Below are positions 3,970 to 50,885 of a stretch of 64,000 nucleotides of DNA, piece after piece. The notes below the pieces were generated by a model. The model saw only the letters and a program-made list of their open reading frames with translations, was not told the DNA's origin and did no database searches. The position numbers and the translations under genes were made by a program. Source of the DNA: a virus (Duplodnaviria; Caudoviricetes); the IMG/VR virus record IMGVR_UViG_3300020577_006811, positions 1 to 64,000 of that record; one strand, written 5' to 3'. Positions within the stretch are counted from its first letter, which is position 1, and each line of letters opens with the position of its first letter.

Positions 3970-4176
3970 TCAGTGCCGTTCCCGCGTGCCGTCAGATGCG
4001 GGCAATAACGCGCGGCTTGGTTCGTTGCGGATCGCAATGTACATCTCGTCAAACCTGTTAGCAGCGCGGAAGGTGTACCATTGTGTCAGATCATGGTTCA
4101 CAATGGCCTCTCTCGGAATCAAGCAGCCAAGCCTGCACCTAGCTTTCCAACGGCGGCGTGAAATCCTTTTGCGCAT
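3970..4176 (-). CDS. hypothetical protein
   Basis: ATG overlapping the upstream TGA. Confidence 0.45.
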   Translation of the reverse strand: MRKRISRRRWKARCRLGCLIPREAIVNHDLTQWYTFRAANRFDEMYIAIRNEPSRALLPASDGTRERH

Positions 4177-4289
4177 CAATTCACAGCCTCTGCGTAGCCC
4201 AGCAGCTCGGGCAGGAACGACGCGCCGTAGCAGACGCCAACAACAACCAGCCAAAATATCGCGTCACGGTAGGTCATGGCTAGCTCCTC

Positions 4290-4547
4290 TCAGCGCTCAC
4301 TGCGGTTGCGCAGGAACTGGCGGCAGTCGTGGCGCACCTTTTCCGCATAGGAACCCTGCAGCGTGAACATTTCGCCGAAATCGTTGCAGAGGTCGGAAAG
4401 CTCACCCATCTTGCGGGCCAGAATTTCCAACTCCGCGTCTGTCAGGTGGTCGCCGCGACGATAGACCTCCAGCAAAGTGCTTGGGTGCCGAGGCACAAGG
4501 CCATTAGTTCCGACAGGGCCGAAGCCTGCAAATGCGCGCGGGTCCAT
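4290..4547 (-). CDS. hypothetical protein
   Basis: GGAGG RBS, in operon. Confidence 0.65.
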   Translation of the reverse strand: MDPRAFAGFGPVGTNGLVPRHPSTLLEVYRRGDHLTDAELEILARKMGELSDLCNDFGEMFTLQGSYAEKVRHDCRQFLRNRSER

Positions 4548-4561
4548 AATACGGTCCTCCC

Positions 4562-4879
4562 CTATTCCTTGTGCGCGCGCTCTACCGCGGCGCAGGCCAC
4601 AGAGAACGATTCCGCTTTACCGCTGTCGTGCGTCCAGCCGTTGCGGTAGACGGCCCAGTCCCAAGTCTGCGCATCACCCGCCACGCGGCCAATGATGCAC
4701 TCACCAAGCCAGCCCGCAAACACGCCGGGCCGTTCGCACTCCCAGCGCACCCGTTCGATCTTCTCCATGGCGGCGTAGCGATAGTCCATGCGTTCGTACT
4801 CGCCCATGTCGGACCAGTCGCGGCCGTTAAGTGCGGCCAGATCGCGCGCCAAGGTTTCGGTGCGGTTGGTGTAGGTCAT
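4562..4879 (-). CDS. hypothetical protein
   Basis: GAGG RBS, in operon. Confidence 0.65.
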   Translation of the reverse strand: MTYTNRTETLARDLAALNGRDWSDMGEYERMDYRYAAMEKIERVRWECERPGVFAGWLGECIIGRVAGDAQTWDWAVYRNGWTHDSGKAESFSVACAAVERAHKE

Positions 4880-4886
4880 GACACCC

Positions 4887-5111
4887 TCAATGGTTGGAGG
4901 CGAACGGCGTTTCCGCGTCGCGCCACACGCATCCGGGGATTGTCTCTGCGTTGCGCAGGCGGCGCTGCAATTCCCAGCGGAGTTCGTTGTAGCGCTCGCG
5001 GCGCGTCAGAAACTCGGGGCCGCGCGGGTTCTGCACAAACCTATTCGGGTCGCGCGCCTCCATGGCGTTGATGCGCTCAAGGCGGGCGTAGAGGTTGTCG
5101 GTCGTGTTCAT
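4887..5111 (-). CDS. hypothetical protein
   Basis: In operon, plausible RBS. Confidence 0.55.
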   Translation of the reverse strand: MNTTDNLYARLERINAMEARDPNRFVQNPRGPEFLTRRERYNELRWELQRRLRNAETIPGCVWRDAETPFASNH

Positions 5112-5163
5112 GTCCGCGTCTCCCGTTTCGATACGCAGACGCTACGCTACGGCGCGTATGACG

Positions 5164-5523
5164 TCAAGGAGTTTTCGGGCGCTGCCGCCTAACAGCCTGT
5201 TGATACTTTTCCGCCTCGGTGGGCTCTCGCCAAACGATCTCTGGCTCACGAAGCTCGGCCGCACGCGCGCGGTGTTTCATGCTTTCAGTGACGTTCGCGG
5301 CGTTGATGCCGCCATTCTGACGGCATCCAGTCGAACAAAACTTCGCTAAAGGCTTACCGTCGTCCACCTCCTGCCAAGAGTAGAACCCAACCCACGAGTT
5401 TGACCATGGAGCAAGGGTTCCGCAGATGCAGCAGCAGTGCAGCAGTCGTCCGTCCGAAGTTCGGCGTCGCTGTGGTCCGCGCTCACTGCGATCAAGATCC
5501 ATCACCTTCAATGCGGCTCTCAT
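5164..5523 (-). CDS. putative Zn-finger protein
   Basis: CCICG and FCSTGC motifs; start uncertain. Confidence 0.6.
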   Translation of the reverse strand: MRAALKVMDLDRSERGPQRRRTSDGRLLHCCCICGTLAPWSNSWVGFYSWQEVDDGKPLAKFCSTGCRQNGGINAANVTESMKHRARAAELREPEIVWREPTEAEKYQQAVRRQRPKTP

Positions 5524-15741: not shown

Positions 15742-18672
15742 ATGCACGCGCCTGCCGATCTCCGCCAGAGGAAGGAACGCATCGCCGCGCTTATCTACGA
15801 AAAGCGCAAGCGGGAAAACCGCATCGTTATGGAAGACAGCCTCTACGAGTTCACGCGCGCGGCGTGGTCTTCCATTGAGAGCAGCACCTTCCAAGACAGT
15901 TGGGCCATTGAGGCGCTGTGCGAGCACCTGCAGGCCGTTACCTACGGCCACATCAAAAGATTGCTTATAAATTTCCCGCCGAGATGCGGCAAGCCGGTCG
16001 CGCACGACAGCCTTGTGCTCACGCGGGCTAAAGGGTTGGTTAAAATTGATCAGATTATCGTCGGGGACGAGGTTCTGACTCACAAGGGCAATTGGAAGCC
16101 AGTAACTGCCGTCCACCGCCAGGGCGTGCTGCCAATATTGCGTGTGCATACTGCTGGAGGCCGCATGGTAGAAGCTGCGCCAGACCACCCGTTTTTGACG
16201 CCTAATGGGTGGGTGGAGGCTGGCGCCCTTATGGTTGACGATGTATTGGGCATCGTACCTCCGCAATCGCCGTGCGGACGAAACTCCATACCTTTAGAGG
16301 AGGCCCGTTTGCTCGGGTACTTTGTTGGCGACGGGCATTGTGGCGGCACGCCAAACATCACATGCGCGGATGACGACATAGCGGCCGACATCATCCATTG
16401 CATCCGTGCGACCGGATTCGTTGCCGCCGACCAGTCGTATCGCATGGCGAATACCGGATACATGCTTCGCCGTATATCAATGAAGCCAATTAGCCACGCA
16501 AAGGAGCGCCGGCACAAAGGCTACAAAGGGCCCGTTCGGCAATGGCTGGCGGACCGTGGCCTAGACCATCAGTCATCATACACAAAGATGGCGCCATCTA
16601 GCATCATGGAGGGCTCGGATGACATCGTGGCCGCTTTCTTAGGGGCCTATTGGTCCTGCGATGGGTTTATCACAGCGAGAGGAAGAAAGGGCGACGGCGT
16701 CGAACGGACCGACCTGCAAATTGGTTGTGACAGCGTCAACCAAGCGTTCATGCGACAGGTTCAGACATTGTTGGCTCGTCTCGGGATAAACTCGCATGTC
16801 CGGACCAAGGTCAACAAGAAGCTCAAAACCAAGCGGCAAGGCGACCAATACGTTTCTTATAGCTTGACCCTCCGCTCGCAAGACGACTGTTATCGTTTTG
16901 CCCAACGCATCAAGCTAAAGCATTCCAAGCGCTTTAAGCTGGAATACGAATACAAACGCCGGTTTGATTTTGACCGCCCCATATGGGGTGAAGTGATTGT
17001 TTCCGTTGAAGAGGCTGGTGAGAAAGAATGCTTATGCCTTACTGTGGCTGATGATGAAAGTTTCACGGCTAACGGATTTGCCGTGCACAACAGTTCAGTC
17101 GCATCCATATGCTGGCCGGCTTGGACATGGGCGCAGCCTGAAGAGCGCCGCTCGTTCGTATGTGGCCCAGGCACGCAGTTCCTTACGGCGTCGTACAATC
17201 ACGCGCTATCCTTGAAACTCAGCACTGCCAGCCGGCGCCTGATCCTCTCGCCGTTCTATCAAGAGTATTGGGGTGACCGGTTTAAGCTTGCAGGCGACCA
17301 AAACTCTAAAACTCAGTACGACACGGACCAGGGTGGCACGCGCATATCTACGTCAATCGGTGGTAGTCTTATCGGTATCGGCGGTGCGGTACTACTAGCG
17401 GACGACCCCCACAACACAGAGTCCGTCGAAAGCGAAGCCGAGCGCGAGACTGTGCTTCGTTGGTGGAAGGAATTCAGCAGCACGCGCCTCAACGACCCGA
17501 ACGAGTCTGCCATCGTCGTGGTCATGCAGCGACTGAACGAGGCTGACGTCAGCGGCGTCATCCTTGAAAGCTCGCGCGACTGGACGCACCTCATGCTGCC
17601 AATGCGCTACGACGAAACGCGCCATTGCCGCACGGTCATTGCCCCCGGAAAGTTTTGGGAAGATCCCCGCAAGGATACAGGCGAATCCTTGATGTGGCCG
17701 GAGCGCTTCGGCGCGCAGAAGGTCAAGGAGATGGAAGACGATCTTGGGCCGTACATGGCGTCCGGTCGTCTCCAGCAGCGTCCGTCTCCGCAGGGCGGTG
17801 GCATTCTCAAGCGCGAATGGTGGAAGACTTGGGAAGAGCCAGAGTACCCGTACTGCTACTATAAGTGGGCGTCTGCCGACACGGCTTATACGGAAGCCGA
17901 AGAGAACGACCCCACGGGTTTTACGGTCTGGGGGCTCTTTGAGATTGCGCACCAGCCGCACATCATCCTCATGGATGCGTGGCGCAAGCGATTGGAACTG
18001 CACATTCCGCAGCAATGGGAAGACAAAGACGGCACCCCATCCAGCCGATTGGAGCAGGTCAAGTCGTGGCAGCGTGCAGCGTGGGCTCAATACAAAGCCA
18101 TGCAACAAGCACAGCAGGGTATGAAGCCGCCGCAGATTTCGCCCGAGTTGGAGCCGTGGTCCACGTACATCCATTACGGCATCAGCAACGCCGACCGCTG
18201 GCCCGACGAAACCTACGAGATGTGGCGACTGCGCACACAGGAGAAGTGGGGTCTGTGCGAATGGATCGCGCATTCGTGCAGGCGCTTCAGCGTCAACGAA
18301 CTTCTGATTGAGGCTAAGGCGACCGGCATCACAGTCGCTCAAGAGCTTCGGCGGCTGAATGGCAACGATGGCTGGGGCATTCAACTAAAGACTCCGCAGG
18401 GCGACAAGGTCGCACGTGCCTATGCGGTGCAAAGCACGCTAAGCTCCGGGCTCGTATATGCGCCAGACAAAGCCTGGGCCGATCTTGTGCTTGAGGAAAC
18501 CAGTTCGTTTCCCAAACACCGCTATAAAGATTTGACCGATTCTACCTCAATGGCGTGGCTTCACGTCCGCGAGATGGGCATGTTGACTAGACCTGAAGAA
18601 CGGTTGCTTGCCGAGCAAATGGCCGCACAATACCGGCCGCAAACCGCCCCACTTTACCCAGGATCGCGATGA
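15742..18672 (+). CDS. terL: terminase large subunit (intein-interrupted)
   Basis: Spliced Walker A LINFPPRCGK|SSVAS; Walker B LLADDPH; VVMQRL; QQRP; C-terminal nuclease SADTAY / IEAKATG / DLTDSTS. Confidence 0.95.
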   Translation: MHAPADLRQRKERIAALIYEKRKRENRIVMEDSLYEFTRAAWSSIESSTFQDSWAIEALCEHLQAVTYGHIKRLLINFPPRCGKPVAHDSLVLTRAKGLVKIDQIIVGDEVLTHKGNWKPVTAVHRQGVLPILRVHTAGGRMVEAAPDHPFLTPNGWVEAGALMVDDVLGIVPPQSPCGRNSIPLEEARLLGYFVGDGHCGGTPNITCADDDIAADIIHCIRATGFVAADQSYRMANTGYMLRRISMKPISHAKERRHKGYKGPVRQWLADRGLDHQSSYTKMAPSSIMEGSDDIVAAFLGAYWSCDGFITARGRKGDGVERTDLQIGCDSVNQAFMRQVQTLLARLGINSHVRTKVNKKLKTKRQGDQYVSYSLTLRSQDDCYRFAQRIKLKHSKRFKLEYEYKRRFDFDRPIWGEVIVSVEEAGEKECLCLTVADDESFTANGFAVHNSSVASICWPAWTWAQPEERRSFVCGPGTQFLTASYNHALSLKLSTASRRLILSPFYQEYWGDRFKLAGDQNSKTQYDTDQGGTRISTSIGGSLIGIGGAVLLADDPHNTESVESEAERETVLRWWKEFSSTRLNDPNESAIVVVMQRLNEADVSGVILESSRDWTHLMLPMRYDETRHCRTVIAPGKFWEDPRKDTGESLMWPERFGAQKVKEMEDDLGPYMASGRLQQRPSPQGGGILKREWWKTWEEPEYPYCYYKWASADTAYTEAEENDPTGFTVWGLFEIAHQPHIILMDAWRKRLELHIPQQWEDKDGTPSSRLEQVKSWQRAAWAQYKAMQQAQQGMKPPQISPELEPWSTYIHYGISNADRWPDETYEMWRLRTQEKWGLCEWIAHSCRRFSVNELLIEAKATGITVAQELRRLNGNDGWGIQLKTPQGDKVARAYAVQSTLSSGLVYAPDKAWADLVLEETSSFPKHRYKDLTDSTSMAWLHVREMGMLTRPEERLLAEQMAAQYRPQTAPLYPGSR
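15994..17091 (+). mobile_element. intein (366 aa) with LAGLIDADG homing endonuclease
   Basis: Starts PVAHDSLV after GK; block B AAPDHPF; LLGYFVGDGH and FLGAYWSCDGF; ends SFTANGFAVHN|S. Confidence 0.92.
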
Positions 18673-18914
18673 TGGACCCAGCCACCGCCTTGAAGCAGGA
18701 AGCCGTTTGGATGGCACGCGGGCAAGCCACCCAAGAGGCATCGCAGCGTGCGCAGGCTTACCGTCCACGGCTTGGCATGCACCAGTACACGTGCCCAAAG
18801 TGCTGGATTCTTCGCGCTCAAATGAGCCCCATGCGCTCTGTGCCCGGCACCAGCGAATACGACGTGCTGGTGTGCAACACCTGCGACGGCGATGTCGTGA
18901 TCCCCTTTGACTGA
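18669..18914 (+). CDS. small Zn-ribbon protein
   Basis: CPKC...CNTC; overlaps the terL stop. Confidence 0.65.
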   Translation: MMDPATALKQEAVWMARGQATQEASQRAQAYRPRLGMHQYTCPKCWILRAQMSPMRSVPGTSEYDVLVCNTCDGDVVIPFD

Positions 18915-18923
18915 AGGAATGCC

Positions 18924-19151
18924 ATGTTCACCCAACTGAACCCACCCCTCCCCGTCTTCGTCGTGGGGCGGGGCAAAGGCTCTGCAATCGCAGTCATTGA
19001 CTACGGCCAAGAGCACAACCTGATTTGGGTCACGGCCATTGACGCCACGGGCGAAATCTGGTGTGCACCGAACCCAAGTGTGCGAATGCAATCCAACTGG
19101 ACCATGGGGCGACAGCTTACGCCTCAACCGAGCGAGCCGACCAAGGCGTAG
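18924..19151 (+). CDS. conserved phage hypothetical protein
   Basis: QLNPPLP...IDYGQEH..IWV...GEIW...NP.VR...N.T.GR motif. Confidence 0.8.
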   Translation: MFTQLNPPLPVFVVGRGKGSAIAVIDYGQEHNLIWVTAIDATGEIWCAPNPSVRMQSNWTMGRQLTPQPSEPTKA

Positions 19152-19153
19152 AC

Positions 19154-19309
19154 ATGCAAGCCGTTGTCACATCCCAGTCGGAAATGCGCGCCGCGGTCAA
19201 GGAAGCCGCGCAGAAGGGCCTGCGCTGGACGCAGATCAGCACGCAAGGCCTGCCGTCCGGCACGATGCGGCTCACGTTTTACCCAGAAGCGCAGAGCATC
19301 AACGGTTGA
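19154..19309 (+). CDS. hypothetical protein (51 aa)
   Basis: In operon. Confidence 0.5.
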   Translation: MQAVVTSQSEMRAAVKEAAQKGLRWTQISTQGLPSGTMRLTFYPEAQSING

Positions 19310-19430
19310 CGCAGCGACAACGCTGTGCCATGCAAGGCCATGGACCGATTGGCACTCATATCCGGCCTCTCCACGCGCTCGCGATACTTACGCTGAGCCC
19401 CCGCGCGTTTGCGCAACACTTCTCTTAAAC

Positions 19431-19506
19431 GTCACGGTACCCCAACGGTAGAGGGCCCGGCCTCAAACCCCGGTCAGTGTCCGTTCGAATCGGACCCGTG
19501 ACACCA
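19431..19506 (+). tRNA. tRNA-Leu(CAA), short variable loop
   Basis: Acceptor GTCACGG/CCGTGAC; loop CT-CAA-AC; T arm GTCCG-TTCGAAT-CGGAC; A73; CCA. Confidence 0.8.
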
Positions 19507-19510
19507 TCAC

Positions 19511-19587
19511 ACTCGTCTGGCGGAATTGGTATACGCGGTGGGCTTAAACCCCACGTCATGATCCCGGTTCGAACCCGGGGACGAGTA
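19511..19587 (+). tRNA. tRNA-Leu(TAA)
   Basis: Acceptor ACTCGTC/GACGAGT; GTGGG-CTTAAAC-CCCAC; no encoded CCA. Confidence 0.85.
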
Positions 19588-19588
19588 C

Positions 19589-19678
19589 GGGAAGGGTTCC
19601 CCTCAGCGGTCTGTAAAACCGCCGGCTTTGAAAGAGAGGGGTGGCTGCCTAGAGGATCGTAACCTCCCCAACCCACCA
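19589..19678 (+). ncRNA. non-canonical tRNA-like RNA, anticodon GTA (Tyr-like)
   Basis: GGGAAGGG/CCCAACCC acceptor, GCGGT-CTGTAAA-ACCGC arm, GAGG-ATCGTAA-CCTC T arm, ACCA end; no canonical D arm. Confidence 0.7.
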
Positions 19679-19681
19679 TTT

Positions 19682-19756
19682 CGGCCTGTGGTGTAACGGT
19701 CAGCACCCTCGGCTCATAACCGAGTTGTGTGGGTTCAAGTCCCACCGGGCCAACCA
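19682..19756 (+). tRNA. tRNA-Met(CAT), initiator-like
   Basis: C1:A72 mismatch; CTCGG-CTCATAA-CCGAG; CCA. Confidence 0.9.
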
Positions 19757-19913
19757 TCTAAGTAGATTGCCCTTGCAATGTCTCGCGCACCATGCCATGC
19801 AGGGCCATGGACACGACGATCACAACACGACGACCGAGACGGCCACGGCGACCCGCCAGGTAACGTCCGCATTCCGTGTTGTGCGCATCGCGCGCAAATC
19901 CTCCATCATTATA

Positions 19914-19988
19914 GCTGGTTTAGCTCAGCGACAGAGCAGCGGTTTTGTAAACCGAAGGCCGTGGGTTCAAATCCTACAACCAGCACCA
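19914..19988 (+). tRNA. tRNA-Thr(TGT)
   Basis: GCTGGTT/AACCAGC; loop TT-TGT-AA; CCA. Confidence 0.9.
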
Positions 19989-19992
19989 AACC

Positions 19993-20068
19993 GCGCACGT
20001 GGCCCAATGGATAAGGCGTCGGTCTACGGAACCGAAGATTGCAGGTTCAAGTCCTGCCGTGCGCTCCA
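19993..20068 (+). tRNA. tRNA-Arg(ACG)
   Basis: GCGCACG/CGTGCGC; TCGGT-CTACGGA-ACCGA; CCA. Confidence 0.95.
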
Positions 20069-20073
20069 CCTTT

Positions 20074-20152
20074 CAGCGCGTAGGGAAGTCTGGTCGTTCC
20101 CGCCTGCCTTGGAAGCAGGAAACCGCTGGTTCAAATCCAGCCGCGCTGACCA
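20074..20152 (+). tRNA. tRNA-Pro(TGG)
   Basis: CAGCGCG/CGCGCTG; CCTGC-CTTGGAA-GCAGG; CCA. Confidence 0.95.
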
Positions 20153-20156
20153 CTTT

Positions 20157-20232
20157 GCACGCCTAGCTCAGCGGATAGAGCGCTGGTTTCCGAAACCAGA
20201 GGACGCAGGTTCGACCCCTGCGGCGTGCTCCA
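20157..20232 (+). tRNA. tRNA-Arg(CCG)
   Basis: GCACGCC/GGCGTGC; CTGGT-TTCCGAA-ACCAG; CCA. Confidence 0.95.
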
Positions 20233-20238
20233 CAGACT

Positions 20239-20321
20239 GCGCAAGTAGCCGGTTCCGGCTTCTACCCGGTTATCCGTAATTGGAGCTGAAAATGAGGGTT
20301 CGAATCCTTCCTTGCGCGCCA
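20239..20321 (+). ncRNA. non-canonical tRNA-like RNA, probable anticodon TCT (Arg-like)
   Basis: Perfect GCGCAAG/CTTGCGC acceptor, CCGG-CTTCTAC-CCGG arm, GAGGG-TTCGAAT-CCTTC T arm, GCCA end; no canonical D arm. Confidence 0.7.
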
Positions 20322-20353
20322 AACAAAAACGGCGGGGCCTTTCGGCACCCGCC
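20322..20353 (-). terminator. intrinsic terminator between the convergent tRNA groups
   Basis: Minus strand GGCGGGTGCC-GAAA-GGCCCCGCC followed by GTTTTTGTTT. Confidence 0.65.
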
Positions 20354-20446
20354 TGAGTTGGGATAGAGCTGAGCCCTGATCTCAGCGCACCCACTCTAAC
20401 CGCAGCGGCGTTGCACGCCTACAAGATCGCGGCGGTTCTCCACAGA

Positions 20447-20520
20447 TGGCAGCCCCTCCCCGAGTTGAACGGGGCCTTACGCAGTCAAAGTGCGTCGTCA
20501 TACCGATAGACCAAGGGGCC
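20447..20520 (-). tRNA. tRNA-Gln(TTG)
   Basis: GGCCCCT/AGGGGCT; ACGCA-CTTTGAC-TGCGT; G73; CCA. Confidence 0.9.
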
Positions 20521-20522
20521 GC

Positions 20523-20596
20523 TGGACGAGCGCCGGGGAATTGAACCCCGTACCACCGATTTGCAGTCGGCTGCGTCACCGTCCCGCCCGCGCTCG
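20523..20596 (-). tRNA. tRNA-Cys(GCA)
   Basis: CGAGCGC/GCGCTCG; GCCGA-CTGCAAA-TCGGT; U73; CCA. Confidence 0.9.
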
Positions 20597-20716
20597 TTGC
20601 GTGCGCTATCTACACTGATCATGGTTCTTGTTTCAACCGCCGACCAGCGTTGACCCTCCCGCCAAATTGTGCCAGCCATCTTGGAACCGCGTCGCGTTCA
20701 ACCCAAGAGGATGCCT

Positions 20717-20950
20717 ATGACGGACGAGACCACGCCTGACGCCGATGCCATGATGCTTTCCCCCCGCGACATCGCCAACGCCTTGAGCGGCGGCCTTGCG
20801 GACCTCACCACCTACGTTCGCACCAATCCAGCCCCCGATCCGCGCGCCATCATGGCCGAGATGGAACGGCTGGCCCTGAACTTCGTGCGCCGCCTGCCCG
20901 TGCCGCAGGCCCAGGCCGGTGACGTCCCCTCCGAGGCTCGCCCCAACTGA
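20717..20950 (+). CDS. hypothetical protein
   Basis: AAGAGG RBS, GC3-rich. Confidence 0.65.
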   Translation: MTDETTPDADAMMLSPRDIANALSGGLADLTTYVRTNPAPDPRAIMAEMERLALNFVRRLPVPQAQAGDVPSEARPN

Positions 20951-44696: not shown

Positions 44697-45074
44697 ATGC
44701 TCCCAGACAAAACCACAAAATGTCATCGGACTGGGTTTCAGGAGACGTGCTTCAAGTGCGTCACCGAGCACAATTGCCGTCTTTGGAAACGCGTCACGCT
44801 AGAGCACCACCCAGAGACGGGAGCCCCGGGCGTCGATCATTACGATTGCGTCGATAGTCTGCAGGATCTTTACCTAAAAGACATGTTGCGGCGTCAGGTG
44901 CAGACGACGGCGACGATCGATAGCCTGCGCCGCGAGGTTCAGAACGCCAACGACGCCGGAATGGCCAACGCACTGATGGGTATCAACCAGCAAATTCGGG
45001 CTCTCAGCAATCAGGCTGCGGCACCTGCGCTGCCGCCTGCCGCCGACGACGACGTTAAGATGCTGGAGAATTGA
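44697..45074 (+). CDS. conserved Cys-rich tail-region protein
   Basis: C...CFKC...CRLW...P.TG...YDC...DSLRRE. Confidence 0.7.
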   Translation: MLPDKTTKCHRTGFQETCFKCVTEHNCRLWKRVTLEHHPETGAPGVDHYDCVDSLQDLYLKDMLRRQVQTTATIDSLRREVQNANDAGMANALMGINQQIRALSNQAAAPALPPAADDDVKMLEN

Positions 45075-45075
45075 G

Positions 45076-47367
45076 ATGGCGTGGAGCACCATCGTAATCA
45101 AACCCGGCGTCAACACCGAGGTCACGAGCACGCTCAACCAAGCTGGCATCTCGTCGTCGGCATTGATCCGGTTTAAAAACGCGCTGGCGCAGAAACTTGG
45201 TGGCTGGGAGAAGCTCTACGCGTTCGCGGTCGGCGGCATCCCTCGGGCGCTGCAAGCGTGGCAGGATTTTAACGAGATAGACCGCCTTGCGGTCGGCACG
45301 ACAACGACCCTTGGCGTCATCGCGGACGGTGAGTTCACGCAAATCACCCCCCAGATTTACCAAACAGACGGCGGCCCCAACCTTTCCACAACCTCTGGGT
45401 CATCGCTTGTTGCCATTACAGACATCAACGTCACGAACCCAACCACAGACGACACGGTCGAATTCAAGACGCCGGTTTCTATCGGCGGTCTCATTCTTTC
45501 GGGTGCGTATCCCATTGATCTGGTCACAAGCACCAACGCCTTCCGCATTGACGCCAGCGCTAACGGGGTCGCCACAAGCACGCAGGCAAACGCCGCCATC
45601 ACAGGCATTACGAATGCAAACCCCGCGGTTGTCACGACAAGCGCCGCGCATGGCTTCACCTCAAATCAGCTGATCTACATTTACAATGTCGGCGGCATGA
45701 CGGAGGTCAACGGGCGCCTGTTTGCCATCACCGTGGTGACACCAACGACCTTCTCGTTGCAGGGCACGAATTCGTCTGCCTACACCACCTACACATCGGG
45801 GGGCGTCGCGAGCCCGGCCTCAGTGCCAAGGTTTGCGACGTCGTCTGGCAGCAACGTGGTGACGGTGACTTTTCAAGCGCATGGGCTGTCGGTGGGCGGG
45901 AAAATCAATTTCCCAATCGAAACGACAGTGGGCGGCGTCACCATTTTAGGCACGTACGCGGCCACCACCATCGTCAGCACCAATGCCTTCACCATCGCTG
46001 TTGATCAATTGGCGACGGCATCAGCGACAGCCATGATGAACGACGGCGACGTCGAGCTGCTCTACTATATTTCTCTTGGTCCGCAGCCAACATCAGTTGG
46101 TTACAGCATCGGAACCTACGGGTCTGGAGGCTACAGTACGGGCTCCGTCGGGTCTGCGCAGACTGGGACGCCCATCACGGCAACAGACTGGACCCTCGAT
46201 AACTGGGGTGCGACGCTGCTGGCCTGCCCAGCAGGCGGCGGCATCTACGAATGGACGCCGGACACCGGCTTTCAAAATGCGAAGCTTCTCTCTGCGGCGC
46301 CTCTTAACAATGGTGGGATCTTGATTGCGCAGCCCGCGCAAATTCTGATCGCGTGGGGCGCAAGCTCTCCGCAGGAGATTGGCGTTGACGCCGACCCACT
46401 TACTTATACGTGGTCAGATCAGCTCGACTACGCCTACTGGACACCAGGGGCCGTCAACCCCGCCACAAACCTCCTCTCTCAGGCTGGATCGAACCGCATT
46501 CCGACTGGTTCTAAGATTGTCGCAGGGCTCACCGTATCGCAGCAGGTCTTGCTGTGGACCGACTTGGATTTGTGGGCGATCAACTACATCGGGCAGCCCG
46601 AGACAGGGCTTATTTTTGGACAGAATAAGATCGGCGGCGCCTGCGGCACGGTTAGCGCCCACGCTGTGGGGCAGCTCGGCAGTACGGTTGCGTGGATGGG
46701 GCGCTCAAATTTTTTCCAATTGAGCGGCAACGGCGTCGTGCCGATCCCCTGTTCTGTGTGGGACGTCGTCTTCCAAGACCTCGACACCAACAACCTCGAC
46801 AAGATCCGCTGCTGTCCCAACACGCCGTTCAACGAAATGATGTGGGAGTTCCCCAGCGCCTCTGGGGGCACCGGCGAAAACGACACTTACGTCAAATGGA
46901 ACATTGTTGAGAACACCTGGGATTTTGGCCCACTGGCGCGCTCAGCGTGGGTTGATCAGTCGGTGCTCGGCATGCCCATAGGGGCGACCCCCAGCGGCAT
47001 CATTTATCAACACGAAGTGGGGGAGAACGCTGACGGGCAGCCCCTCATGTGGAGCTTCACGACAGGCTACTTCCAGCTTGGTGAGGGCGAAGACTTTCAG
47101 GTTGTGGACTTGATTGTGCCAGATTTTAAGTATGGCACGTATGAGGGAAGCCAGGGCGCTATTGTGCAGATGATGGTGTACGCCACAAATTTCCCCGGCG
47201 AGACGCCGCGCGAGTTCGGGCCCTACCAATTCAACTCAAGCTCAACCCAGCAGAATGTGCGCATCCGCGCGCGGCAGATGTCGTTCAAATTTTTTGGCGA
47301 AGACCTGAACAGCTTCGTACGCCTTGGCCGCGTCCGCATTCGCGTTGCACCCGACGGCAGGAGGTAA
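45076..47367 (+). CDS. tail nozzle / DNA-stabilisation protein (podoviral gp10-like)
   Basis: 763 aa; IKPGVNTE, QKLGGW, WSDQ.D...W, RIP.GS.I, W.G..NFF; internal ITNANPAVVT..AHG module. Confidence 0.75.
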   Translation: MAWSTIVIKPGVNTEVTSTLNQAGISSSALIRFKNALAQKLGGWEKLYAFAVGGIPRALQAWQDFNEIDRLAVGTTTTLGVIADGEFTQITPQIYQTDGGPNLSTTSGSSLVAITDINVTNPTTDDTVEFKTPVSIGGLILSGAYPIDLVTSTNAFRIDASANGVATSTQANAAITGITNANPAVVTTSAAHGFTSNQLIYIYNVGGMTEVNGRLFAITVVTPTTFSLQGTNSSAYTTYTSGGVASPASVPRFATSSGSNVVTVTFQAHGLSVGGKINFPIETTVGGVTILGTYAATTIVSTNAFTIAVDQLATASATAMMNDGDVELLYYISLGPQPTSVGYSIGTYGSGGYSTGSVGSAQTGTPITATDWTLDNWGATLLACPAGGGIYEWTPDTGFQNAKLLSAAPLNNGGILIAQPAQILIAWGASSPQEIGVDADPLTYTWSDQLDYAYWTPGAVNPATNLLSQAGSNRIPTGSKIVAGLTVSQQVLLWTDLDLWAINYIGQPETGLIFGQNKIGGACGTVSAHAVGQLGSTVAWMGRSNFFQLSGNGVVPIPCSVWDVVFQDLDTNNLDKIRCCPNTPFNEMMWEFPSASGGTGENDTYVKWNIVENTWDFGPLARSAWVDQSVLGMPIGATPSGIIYQHEVGENADGQPLMWSFTTGYFQLGEGEDFQVVDLIVPDFKYGTYEGSQGAIVQMMVYATNFPGETPREFGPYQFNSSSTQQNVRIRARQMSFKFFGEDLNSFVRLGRVRIRVAPDGRR

Positions 47368-47716: not shown

Positions 47717-47807
47717 ACGCGCATATTTTTTTCAAGACACTCTGCCGTGACCTGTGTATTTCTTGGGTTGCCTGTGCTGCGTCCAAAATTCAAACCCGAG
47801 ACGCCGC

Positions 47808-50800
47808 ATGGCTCACCCGCTTGCCACCGCTCTTGCCCGCGCCGAACAGCAGACCGAGACGTCGCTGACCGACAAGGCACGCGAGGAGGGCAGTTACCGC
47901 AAAGGCAAACTGACCTGGAATGACATCCCTATCGCGATTGAGAACCCGAAAGGGTCCATTCGCACGGGCGTCGGCCGCGATGGCAAGCGCTGGTTCTGCG
48001 AGATGCCTGCCGCCTATGGCGAGGTGCGCAGGAGCGAAGGCCAGGACGGCGACCCGGTGGACGTCTACGTGGGGCCCGCGCACGGTAGCAAGCGCGTCTG
48101 GGTTATTGACCAGGTGGATGCCGATACGGGACGCAGTGACGAACACAAGTGTTTGCTTGCTTTCCCGAACAAGGACGCGGCGCTGAAGGCCTACGAGGCG
48201 TCGTTTTCCGACGGGAAAGCTAAACAGCGCATTGGCGCTGTGACGGAACTCTCGGTCGCGGAGTTCCGCGATTTCCTGAAAAACGGGGACACCACTAAGC
48301 CCATGTCTCAGCAGAAAAAGTCCGACAAGGCATTGGAAGTCGCGCAGCGCTACACCAAGGGCTACGCCTACGGTGGCCGTGTGGGATACGCCGAAGGCGG
48401 CCCGGCTGGCGAGATCGCATCAGAGATGACCCGCGATCTGCGCCGGGACCGGCAGCGGCGGGCGCTCGCAGGGCGCGAACTGACGCCCGATGAGGAGGCT
48501 GCCTACGCCGACTACGTGGCGCGGTTGCCCGAGCGGCGCGAAATGAAGGCCCGCGAACTGGACGGCTTTACGTCGGGTATCGGCGACCTGCTGACGCCGG
48601 GCGAAACGCTGCCGATGATGGACGCGCGGACGCGTCGCCAGATTGCGGCTCGGTCGCTTGCTGGGCGAGATCTGACCTACGACCAGATGCGCGAGTTGGC
48701 AGATCAGGAGGCGGTCAACGAGGAGCGCAGCGCGCGACTGGGCGTGCCCTTGGGCATTGCTGCAACGGAACTGACGGGCGTGCCATCCATCATGCGCGGC
48801 GGCAGCAACGTCGTGCGCGGCATTGAAGAGCGCGATCCGGCCCGCATTGCGGGTGGTGCTTTGGAAGGCGTCATCGGGGCGGCTCCGCTGGGAATGGTGG
48901 CTCGGCCCGTGGCCGCAGCCTTGAAGCCGCTGACTGGATCGGTGCCGCGGTTTACGGCGACCAGCATGGGCGCGTCTGGCTTGACGTCCTACGCGGACGA
49001 CGCCAAGGCGGCCGAACGCAACGTGGCGACGCGCATTGCGAGCGACCCGGAAGTGAAGGCCATTATTGACAAGCGGACAGCGGCGCTGGCTGAGATCCAG
49101 CGGGTGCAGGAAGACCTGATTGCGAAGAACCCCGCCATCCAAGCTTTGGAGGCAAAGCGGGCGCAGCAGCAGCTCCTGCGCAAGGCGACAAACGATAAGT
49201 ATGCCAAGGCGGGCCCCGAGACGCAGAAGCAGGCGCTGGCGCCGTTTGACGAAGAGATCAAACGCATCAATGGCCAGATCCAGGAAATCAGCGACGGCGC
49301 GTTAAAGCCTTATAAGGACGAAGTGACCCGGCTGACGGCGGCTCTTGGCACTGCCGAAGATCGCGCGCGCGCGGCCTACATGGATGAAGCTACGTTCCGC
49401 GAAAAGTACCCCGGCGTGCCGATGGCGCTGATGGCTGGCGGTCTAGGTGTGGCTGGCGCGCTCCCGTTGATGAAGGCGGGGCTGGGCCGGGTCACGGACA
49501 GTTGGAAGCGCAAGTCTATTGAGGACGCGACGACCAAGACGGAGAACGCGTTCGCGGGCGGTCTGTCAGATGCGGAGACGGCCATCGCGCAGCAGCGGTT
49601 GCAGCGGCATTTGGATCGCTGGGACGCTGACCATGGGAAGATTGCAGGTGGCTGGAATTTTCTCGCCAATACCGGCAAAGGGGCGCTGTTGGGCGCCGAG
49701 GCGTCGCAGTTGCCGGAGCAATTGGATTACCTGACCAACGCGCCGGGGCACCCCGCACGCGAGGCGGCCGTCAAGCAATTGCAAAACCCAGAGTATTGGA
49801 AGGAGCGTTGGGGCCCGGCGCTACTTGGCGCTGGCAGCGCCATCATGGGGCACACGGCGGCGCACATGATCCCGCAGAACCGGGAGTTTCTGGTGCCGGC
49901 GCGAGAAGTGGCGTCACGCGGGGCCGAGCCGTCGCGGGTGGACGCGCTGTTGGCGAAGTTGCACGGGCGGAGCAAGCCCGAGGGCCCGACCGAGGACGCC
50001 ATCAAGCAGGTGCAGCGGTATCGGTCTGCTGTTGGGCCTTCCGGTGCGCGTGAAGACGCCAAGATGCTCGAAGGGCTGCTTGATACGCCTCCGGGCTCAG
50101 GCGCTCCTTTGCCACGGCCCACTTCTCCTGAATTGACAGCGTTGCCCAGTCCGTCGGTAATCCCGCCGTCTGCACAGGCTCCAAGTCCGTCGCGGTCGCC
50201 CGAAGCGCTTTCCAATCTGGAGTCTGCGGCATCCAAGGCCTCTGATGTGATCAAGCAGTCCAAGCGTAGCGCGGATATGCGGCCTTGGGAAGGCGCTCCA
50301 CCCAAGGGGGTTAAACTGCCCAAGGGAACTCTGTGGGACGCGAACATGGGGCGGACTCGGCGCGAGGACGGCACGTTGGGGCCGGCTCCTCGGTACAGTG
50401 CGCCTCGAAAAAAGGATAACCCGCAAAGCTTACCCAAGTCTGAACAGGGGGAAGGCAAGGCGTCGGGCGGGATTGTCGGGCGAGTTTTCGACGTCGTGCG
50501 CCGGTATGCTGGTGGCGGCCGAGTGGTCCCGCATGGGTTGATGGCGGGGGACACCCCAGGTCGTTCCGACAAATTGCCGGTGCAAGTCCCAAATGGCGCC
50601 TATGTACTGCCCGCAGACTTTGTCTCAGGCCTTGGCGAGGGCAATACCATGGCCGGCTCAAAGCGGTTCAAGGAAATGTCGCCGCCCCCTGCTCCTGGGT
50701 TTGCGCGAGGCGGCCACGTTGAAATCATGATCAGCGACGGCGAAGAGGTGGTGCACCCCGACGTCGTCGCGGCATGGGGTGGCGGCGATTTAGATAGAGG

Positions 50801-50885
50801 GCACAAGGTTCTTGACCAAATGGTGAGGCAAGGTAGATCAGAGACGATCCGTAAATTAGCGTCCCTTCCACCGCCCGCGAAATAG
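47808..50885 (+). CDS. putative polyvalent ejection protein: N-terminal inorganic-pyrophosphatase-like domain, AxGG motifs, C-terminal tandem SD..P...(P/S)xG(A/E)xV domains
   Basis: IAIENPKGS.R...YG.V...G.DGDPVDVYVG...DEHK; YAYGG, YAEGG, YAGGG, FARGG; PGRSDKLPVQVPNGAYV and ISDGEEVV. Confidence 0.75.
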   Translation: MAHPLATALARAEQQTETSLTDKAREEGSYRKGKLTWNDIPIAIENPKGSIRTGVGRDGKRWFCEMPAAYGEVRRSEGQDGDPVDVYVGPAHGSKRVWVIDQVDADTGRSDEHKCLLAFPNKDAALKAYEASFSDGKAKQRIGAVTELSVAEFRDFLKNGDTTKPMSQQKKSDKALEVAQRYTKGYAYGGRVGYAEGGPAGEIASEMTRDLRRDRQRRALAGRELTPDEEAAYADYVARLPERREMKARELDGFTSGIGDLLTPGETLPMMDARTRRQIAARSLAGRDLTYDQMRELADQEAVNEERSARLGVPLGIAATELTGVPSIMRGGSNVVRGIEERDPARIAGGALEGVIGAAPLGMVARPVAAALKPLTGSVPRFTATSMGASGLTSYADDAKAAERNVATRIASDPEVKAIIDKRTAALAEIQRVQEDLIAKNPAIQALEAKRAQQQLLRKATNDKYAKAGPETQKQALAPFDEEIKRINGQIQEISDGALKPYKDEVTRLTAALGTAEDRARAAYMDEATFREKYPGVPMALMAGGLGVAGALPLMKAGLGRVTDSWKRKSIEDATTKTENAFAGGLSDAETAIAQQRLQRHLDRWDADHGKIAGGWNFLANTGKGALLGAEASQLPEQLDYLTNAPGHPAREAAVKQLQNPEYWKERWGPALLGAGSAIMGHTAAHMIPQNREFLVPAREVASRGAEPSRVDALLAKLHGRSKPEGPTEDAIKQVQRYRSAVGPSGAREDAKMLEGLLDTPPGSGAPLPRPTSPELTALPSPSVIPPSAQAPSPSRSPEALSNLESAASKASDVIKQSKRSADMRPWEGAPPKGVKLPKGTLWDANMGRTRREDGTLGPAPRYSAPRKKDNPQSLPKSEQGEGKASGGIVGRVFDVVRRYAGGGRVVPHGLMAGDTPGRSDKLPVQVPNGAYVLPADFVSGLGEGNTMAGSKRFKEMSPPPAPGFARGGHVEIMISDGEEVVHPDVVAAWGGGDLDRGHKVLDQMVRQGRSETIRKLASLPPPAK

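Follow-up and report, generated by a model that had tools for sequence, protein, structure and literature searches.

The question raised by the DNA analysed here, the first 64 kb (64,000 nucleotides; the window) of the 82-kb IMG/VR virus record IMGVR_UViG_3300020577_006811 (Duplodnaviria; Caudoviricetes), is what lies in a gap of a phage tRNA array that tRNA finders leave empty. A tRNA-like gene of 90 nt at 19589–19678 on the plus strand occupies exactly the space between tRNA-Leu(taa) (19511–19588), which abuts it without a spacer, and tRNA-Met (19682–19756), which starts three bases after it. A preliminary description made from the sequence alone had proposed that a helix involving the segment after the anticodon arm stands in for the D arm of this element, that its acceptor and T stems are divided 8/4, and that it is either a decoy or a functional adaptor. 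Comparison with homologues bears out this fold, adds a further helix that crosses the first, and makes it probable that the element is the gene for a working, non-cloverleaf elongator tRNA-Tyr(GUA) that is conserved in the arrays of phages and mobile elements.

The predicted structure can be followed along the plus strand. An acceptor stem of 8 bp is formed by the 5' strand GGGAAGGG (19589–19596) and the 3' strand CCCAACCC (19667–19674), and consists of six G-C pairs interrupted by two A:A mismatches (A4:A and A5:A), with three G-C pairs on either side of them. Only 9 nt (TTCCCCTCA, 19597–19605) separate this stem from the anticodon arm. They comprise a TT linker equivalent to positions 8 and 9 (19597–19598; mostly TT, CC or AT in the family alignment), the sequence CCCCTC (19599–19604), and a junction A (19605) that faces C19623. 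The anticodon arm (19606–19622) has a perfect 5-bp stem, GCGGT/ACCGC, and a 7-nt loop, CTGTAAA, with U33, the tyrosine anticodon GTA (19613–19615) and A36-A37-A38. A further 29 nt (19623–19651) precede the T arm. This segment contains the GAGGGG sequence at 19636–19641 that pairs with CCCCTC to form a 6-bp helix in place of the D stem, designated H2, and it is followed by a D-loop-like TGGCT (19642–19646), in which G19643 and G19644 are the equivalents of G18 and G19. The T arm (19652–19666) consists of a 4-bp stem, GAGG/CCTC, and the loop ATCGTAA (A54, U55, C56, G57 and U58), and the gene ends with the discriminator A73 (19675) and an encoded CCA (19676–19678). G8 pairs with C65 and A49 stands opposite C65, which rules out a fifth T pair, and hence the split of the acceptor/T limb is 8/4. 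The mismatched acceptor stem, both spacings, the anticodon and T arms, the terminal ACCA and the complementarity between CCCCTC and GAGGGG had all been described before, and each was found again at the same positions. What the preliminary description lacked was a second helix within the 29-nt segment, designated H3, in which GGC (19624–19626) pairs with GCC (19647–19649). An A-rich connector, TTTGAAAGA (19627–19635; this segment is 61% A family-wide), lies between the 5' strand of H3 and the 3' strand of H2, and a TA spacer directly after the 3' strand of H3 leads into the T arm.

Standard tools did not recognize this RNA. ARAGORN made no call on the element in default, low-threshold or mitochondrial mode, and the knotted element was called by this program in only 1 of the 99 loci that carry it. 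A match to a described Rfam family, which the preliminary description had named as one of the outcomes that would speak against its proposal, was not found over the element either at the gathering score or at E values up to 10; covariation among homologues was abundant instead. The general tRNA model RF00005 did not match any of seven relatives tested, and it gave 26.3 bits with the copy of Pseudomonas phage Rembedalsseter, below its threshold of 29 bits. The tRNA-Sec model RF01852 (threshold of 47 bits) had no match in the window, and two relatives (L002 and L176) reached a sub-threshold 30–33 bits with it.

Homologues were identified with several patterns. With the 17-nt anticodon arm as the query, the viral contigs yielded ordinary tRNA-Tyr genes for the most part, but also five loci with the same odd layout whose helix sequences were quite unlike those of the window. 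A gapped pattern that barred normal tRNA spacing, applied with a purpose-made structural scanner, yielded some thirty distinct members in two subfamilies; shuffled DNA never attained the score range of the family. As MAFFT alignments A1–A3 misregistered H2 in some rows, the in-register subset (A4) was used to seed a covariance model (R1), which was built from 18 homologues with the window excluded. This model, of a kind that the preliminary description had proposed, matched the window at 71 bits (E ~1e-16) across all 89 model positions. Family members scored 62–96 bits compared to at most 42 bits for ordinary tRNAs. Scanning one genome per prokaryote species gave 48 loci, 43 of them strong, in metagenome-assembled genomes (MAGs) of Verrucomicrobiota (most loci), Alphaproteobacteria, Bacteroidota, Acidobacteriota and Chloroflexota. 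An anticodon-blind scan that used the T arm of subfamily A added members with other anticodon stems, every one of which carried GTA. The joint structural alignment (A7) contains 83 distinct sequences, to which the family counts below refer, and the RNAs are 86–94 nt long. In all, the design recurs in more than one hundred tRNA clusters from phages and bacteria.

Two members reside in cultured phages. The copy of Pseudomonas phage Rembedalsseter (L388:513-600, corresponding to PQ464593.1 44629–44716 on the minus strand) scored 79 bits and that of Pseudomonas phage SCYZ1 (L389:394-482, at about 46806–46894 of MH518298.3 on the minus strand) scored 74 bits. Both adjoin the gene for the terminase small subunit and both are left unannotated in GenBank; in Rembedalsseter the element is the sole tRNA-like match in the 45-kb genome. 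The nearest relative found for the window copy, in which the H2 and H3 sequences are identical, is on an alphaproteobacterial chromosome (L230). Neither a megablast search with the window array nor a blastn search with a subfamily A member found a match among GenBank phages, and no relatives of the portal protein were found in the viral contigs; these searches thus gave no close relative of the window phage. In one Verrucomicrobia MAG contig, the knotted tRNA-Tyr gene has a GOLLD-RNA-like match at a distance of about 500 nt (L257:906-1401, minus strand; E 4e-31 and 119 bits, the gathering score being 150).

The 83 sequences provide extensive comparative support for five helices, each of which covaries: the 8-bp acceptor stem, the 6-bp H2, the anticodon arm, the 4-bp T arm and H3. 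In the alignment 96.8% of the cells at paired positions could pair, compared to 71.4% in shuffled alignments and 35–52% when the partners were slid, and both-sided changes were present in 25 of the 29 pairs. The covariation score was 0.645, versus 0.16 in shuffles. All eight pairs of the acceptor helix covary and 98% of its cells are paired, with the anticodon arm (99%) and the T stem (98%) being paired to a similar extent. H2, the helix proposed earlier as the replacement of the D arm, was paired in 96–99% of the cells over sets of 33 and 83 distinct homologues, and five of its six pairs showed both-sided change. Although H3 was left out of the covariance model, it was 88–89% paired and all four of its pairs covary. 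When RNAalifold was applied to an alignment made by MAFFT from sequence only, the acceptor stem, H2, the anticodon arm and the T arm were recovered. The 9-nt spacing between the acceptor stem and the anticodon arm, which provides no room for a D stem-loop, is present in the window and in 83 of 83 relatives. Furthermore, most members have no alternative to the 8/4 split, as their position 65 is unable to pair with 49 but able to pair with 8.

In H3, the 3–4 bases that directly follow the anticodon stem are joined to those immediately preceding the T stem. The resulting stem of 3–5 bp begins at the same point as the variable stem of class II tRNAs, and its loop is tied into H2. Canonical tRNA-Tyr genes of the hosts share the GGC...GCC variable stem with H3 of the window. 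By its position and sequence, H3 is the predicted counterpart of the variable-arm stem of class II tRNAs. Since the 3' strand of H2 sits within the loop that H3 closes, the two helices cross and the core of the RNA is a pseudoknot. At the junction between H2 and the anticodon stem, the pair formed by the columns of 19605 and 19623 is G:U in 44, A:C in 24, G:C in 5 and A:U in 4 of the 83 sequences. Such isosteric wobble combinations are what a stacking layer resembling 26:44 would be expected to show in the alignment.

The elbow of the tRNA also appears to be kept. A G occupies the third position past H2 in 83/83 sequences, and C56 of the T loop is likewise present in 83/83. The base that precedes this invariant G is A wherever T-loop position 55 is G (54/54) and is G, C or U wherever position 55 is U (29/29); the 54:58 combination is A:U in 52 sequences, including the window, and U:A in 29. 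This invariant G, whose surroundings co-vary with the T loop, belongs to the TGG that the preliminary description had called D-loop-like. In these alignments the G after H2 and the T-loop bases co-vary like the ordinary contacts of G18 and G19 with positions 55 and 56, and the elbow contacts therefore seem to be retained. Ordinary cloverleaf tRNA(CAT) genes in viral contigs (L306, L317 and L338 among others) combine the unusual T loop AGCGTTA with AAGT(T) as a short D loop. The same AAGT/AGCGTTA partner set is used by subfamily A of the knotted tRNA-Tyr. Its occurrence as the D and T loops of a cloverleaf supports the view that the segment following H2 corresponds to the D loop, and the shared sequences suggest an alternative type of elbow contact in phage tRNAs.

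Having established the fold, we consider its identity. In bacteria the tyrosine identity set consists of G1-C72, A73, G34 and U35, and A36-A37-A38 and U33-G34-U35 are motifs of tRNA-Tyr. The window carries the GUA anticodon, A73 and G1-C72. In the family, the anticodon loop is CTGTAAA in 82/83 members and the 3' end is ACCA in 82/83 (the CCA and GTA counts are partly ascertained, as two of the three search patterns demanded these features), A73 is present in 82/83 and G1-C72 in 75/83. Use of the fold for many anticodons was considered and rejected: hits with scanner scores of at least 22 all have GTA, and only two weaker cases have UCU. The latter are D-armless RNAs with the H2/H3 layout and an arginine anticodon that sit in tRNA arrays of Verrucomicrobiales; one (L262:2254-2341, plus strand) has the loop CTTCTAA and scores 48 bits with the Tyr-based model, and the other (L239:4885-4971, minus strand) has the loop GTTCTAA and scores 38 bits. 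In view of these two members, the fold is not strictly confined to tyrosine.

The distribution of the element among tRNA arrays is equally specific. Other tRNA genes are nearby at 96 of the 99 loci with the element (median of nine) and are missing from the neighbourhood at 3/99. A cloverleaf tRNA-Tyr gene accompanies the element at only 5/99 loci, and at 1 of the 27 arrays with at least 15 other tRNAs; each of the remaining amino acids is represented at 27–63 of the 99 loci. No cloverleaf tRNA-Tyr was found elsewhere in the 82-kb record of the window. From these data we conclude that the element fills the tyrosine slot of the arrays. We also considered whether the knotted RNA is the host's own tRNA-Tyr and rejected this possibility, as each of the five cellular genomes checked contains a canonical class II tRNA-Tyr gene elsewhere. 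Because these hosts own a normal tRNA-Tyr, the knotted form is best described as an accessory gene of phage, prophage or mobile arrays.

We propose the following course of events for the element. RNase P and 3' trimming would free the RNA from the array transcript, and H2 would stack on the anticodon stem via the G:U or A:C layer, standing in for the D stem such that the L shape is kept. The host tyrosyl-tRNA synthetase (TyrRS) would then charge the RNA with tyrosine, given that a TyrRS gene was not found in the phage record and that the RNA has the bacterial tyrosine identity set. The charged RNA would decode UAC and UAU for the phage.

Besides the ascertainment of the CCA and GTA counts noted above, several points weigh against a working tRNA-Tyr, in general or in the case of this copy. 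Bacterial TyrRS contacts the long variable arm of its tRNA, which is knotted in this RNA. The minimum free energy (MFE) fold of the single sequence differs from the proposed structure and is no better than those of shuffled sequences (z = 0.95), and we regard single-sequence folding as uninformative here. The nested helices of the model come within 0.3 kcal/mol of the MFE even when H3 is left out of the calculation. The two adjacent A:A mismatches of the acceptor stem occur in only 2/83 sequences at those columns, and the T loop ATCGTAA is unique among the 83. One explanation for these irregularities is that the family is functional but that the window copy is a decaying pseudo-tRNA, retained only through its position in the array; its 71 bits, among the lowest scores of full-length members, would fit such a history. 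We consider this unlikely. The mismatches are flanked by three G-C pairs on each side, the remaining helices are all perfect, and A73 and CCA are intact. Odd as it is, the T loop follows the covariation rules of the family, both for 54:58 (A54:U58) and for 18:55 (G before the invariant G with U55), and the element is the sole gene with a tyrosine anticodon in the 82-kb record. Less probable by far is that the locus encodes an ordinary tRNA with an intron, or a tRNA on the opposite strand. With introns allowed and thresholds lowered, ARAGORN did call a tRNA-Phe(gaa) at 19578–19678 with a 22-nt intron, as well as a minus-strand tRNA-SeC. However, each of these calls runs into the well-formed tRNA-Leu(taa), has a poor D arm and still contains the A:A mismatches. 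Moreover, what would have to be an intron is the GTA anticodon arm, which is conserved better than any other part of the family, and the loop that remains after its removal is not conserved in homologues. We thus rejected both calls.

Two further explanations accept the RNA as a conserved product and assign it another role. As a decoy or sponge, it would mimic tRNA-Tyr and occupy a nuclease, a tRNA-binding sensor or a modification enzyme with no part in translation. The anticodon loop identical to that of tRNA-Tyr, conservation in elements that also carry the RNA ligase RtcB, and the lone tRNA-like gene of phage Rembedalsseter would all suit this role, and phage tRNA-Tyr has been discussed as either a decoy or a supplement (PMC13096335). 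Nevertheless, if the target were a nuclease that reads the variable arm, a decoy would be expected to retain this arm, which is rebuilt here, and a decoy has no need of the 12-bp EF-Tu-type acceptor/T limb, A73, G1-C72 and encoded CCA that are conserved. Near-complete arrays also omit the cloverleaf tRNA-Tyr exactly where the knotted RNA is present, and we consider the decoy role improbable, about as much so as decay of the window copy or slightly more. An RNA that merely resembles a tRNA and has some other role, for example in priming replication, in integration or in regulation, is more improbable still. The few members without tRNA neighbours (3/99 loci; two Pseudomonas phages) would be accommodated by such a role, but the other 96 lie within tRNA arrays at tRNA-like spacing, and the complete tyrosine identity set is kept. 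Between the two roles put forward in the preliminary description, the sequence evidence favours a functional adaptor over a decoy.

If the element is indeed a working tRNA-Tyr, why its core should be rewired can be considered in the light of bacterial defence. Septu and retron-Eco7 PtuAB cleave tRNA-Tyr in the variable arm stem/loop (C48/A49), and the tRNA-Tyr of phage T5 is reported to be resistant through its distinctive variable loop (PMC13096335, PMC11555353); more generally, evasion of host tRNases has been put forward as a property of phage tRNAs (PMC10264068). What is rebuilt in the knotted family is precisely the variable arm, together with the D arm. It is conceivable, at somewhat less than even chances in our estimation, that the rewiring removes the variable and D arms recognized by such nucleases and spares tyrosine decoding by the phage: host tRNA-Tyr would be cut by the defence nucleases, the rewired copy would escape, and tyrosine decoding would continue. 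The data on these nucleases come from E. coli systems and not from hosts of the knotted family, which weakens this proposal. A connection with RNA repair is also suggested by the surroundings of the gene. The N-terminal part of an RtcB RNA ligase, cut by the contig start, is encoded at 3–734 of the window on the minus strand (Pfam PF01139, E 1.7e-13), and RtcB homologues that are 60–70% identical adjoin the arrays of loci L223 (full length, 3995–5479, minus strand) and L265. By tblastn, RtcB was found at 10 of the 99 loci with knotted tRNA-Tyr versus 0 of 287 other loci, an association that tells less than the counts imply in that it stems from few lineages (eight related Verrucomicrobiota arrays, two Alphaproteobacteria and the window). 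The combined proposal, that a translationally active pseudoknotted tRNA-Tyr works on bacterial ribosomes, has been carried across several bacterial phyla by phages and mobile tRNA arrays and was selected as invisible to defence nucleases that destroy tRNA-Tyr, is offered tentatively and is less secure than either of its parts.

The remainder of the array and of the window has features of its own. The array extends from 19431 to 20596, between the genes for the terminase large subunit and the portal protein, as determined with ARAGORN, Rfam and PHROGs. Its plus strand carries, in order, Leu(caa), Leu(taa), the knotted element, Met, Thr, Arg, Pro and Arg, and its minus strand carries Gln and Cys; ARAGORN and Rfam called nine tRNAs, the knotted element not being among them. 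Both tRNA-Leu genes (19431–19506 and 19511–19588) are only 76–78 nt long with short variable regions, resembling class I tRNAs and unlike the class II tRNA-Leu of bacteria, and tRNA-Leu(taa) has no encoded CCA. Short tRNA-Leu was rejected as a marker of arrays with the knotted tRNA-Tyr, because lengths of at most 80 nt were found for 62% of the tRNA-Leu calls in these arrays versus 63% in other phage arrays. The 20-nt sequence TGCCATGCARGGCCATGGAC, which contains the palindrome CCATG/CATGG, is repeated at 19326–19345 and 19793–19812. Each of the two tRNA blocks on the plus strand has one copy 85–100 nt upstream. This repeat may be a promoter, an operator or a processing signal; neither a sigma-70-like promoter nor an intrinsic terminator was found in 18900–20800. 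The gene for the terminase large subunit (15742–18672, plus strand; PHROG 38) is split by an intein with a LAGLIDADG homing endonuclease (PF14890, PF14528). Also on the plus strand are genes for a 796-aa protein with an E1_FCCH-like domain (44977–47364) and for a 1044-aa protein with an N-terminal InPase domain (47751–50882; PF18823, E 3e-43).

Were the knotted RNA to function as proposed, TyrRS, EF-Tu, RNase P, the modification enzymes and the ribosome would all tolerate a differently wired core, and the pseudoknot would represent a new structural solution to the L shape. It would also explain the apparent lack of tRNA-Tyr in many phage arrays, in which finders miss the gene and GenBank leaves it unannotated, and the RNA would become a candidate scaffold for orthogonal tRNAs in engineering of the genetic code. 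Should the rewiring be a way around nucleases that cut the variable arm, it would constitute a new move in the tRNA arms race between phages and bacteria. No description of the knotted fold was found in the full-text literature searched, a search that most subscription journals lie outside, and the fold is probably new to the literature.

Among known RNAs, the closest in identity is class II tRNA-Tyr(GUA) (RF00005; host copies L273, L274 and L276), which has the same CUGUAAA loop, G1-C72, A73, CCA and C56, and a variable-arm stem directly after the anticodon stem with GGC...GCC as in the window. In contrast to that tRNA, the knotted family has no D hairpin, is divided 8/4 rather than 7/5, and has a variable loop of about 19 nt that pairs with the residual D-side strand. 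The division itself is shared with the 8/4 tRNA-Ser and tRNA-His of alphaproteobacterial phages and the allo-tRNAs described by Mukai et al. 2016 (PMC5389517), which also have a 12-bp acceptor branch and also occur in phage tRNA clusters. Those tRNAs keep a D stem-loop with a long stem and a tetraloop, a hairpin V-arm and serine or histidine identity, and the main text of that paper includes no tyrosine, D-armless or pseudoknotted species (PMC5389517). The G73/U73 of their serine identity is absent from the knotted family, which has A73. tRNA-Sec has a 13-bp acceptor branch and a UCA anticodon as opposed to 12 bp and GUA in the knotted element.

D-armless tRNAs, in which no D hairpin separates the acceptor stem from the anticodon stem, are also found in the mitochondria of nematodes and arachnids (e.g. 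Ascaris mt-tRNA-Ser, PMC7609411). However, these tRNAs are about 55–65 nt long, have an unpaired replacement loop and depend on adapted mitochondrial factors (PMC7609411). The knotted RNA, at 86–94 nt, rebuilds the helix within the molecule, apparently keeps the elbow contacts and belongs to bacterial systems. A review of non-canonical tRNAs listed D-armless tRNAs only in mitochondria (PMC7609411), and according to a 2024 paper all known bacterial tRNAs are cloverleaves (PMC11551756). That a bacterial aminoacyl-tRNA synthetase can use a D-armless tRNA is known from the engineered mini HisT, which was accepted by E. coli HisRS, EF-Tu and the ribosome (PMC11551756); unlike the knotted RNA, mini HisT is a synthetic tRNA in which no helix compensates for the missing arm, and its stability depended on a pnp mutation (PMC11551756). 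The phage-borne tRNA-Tyr genes of T5 and T6, studied against retron-Eco7 and Septu (PMC11555353, PMC13096335), are the nearest parallel in proposed function. These tRNAs are cloverleaves. The logic is likely to be the same in both cases, in that tyrosine decoding would be preserved under attack.

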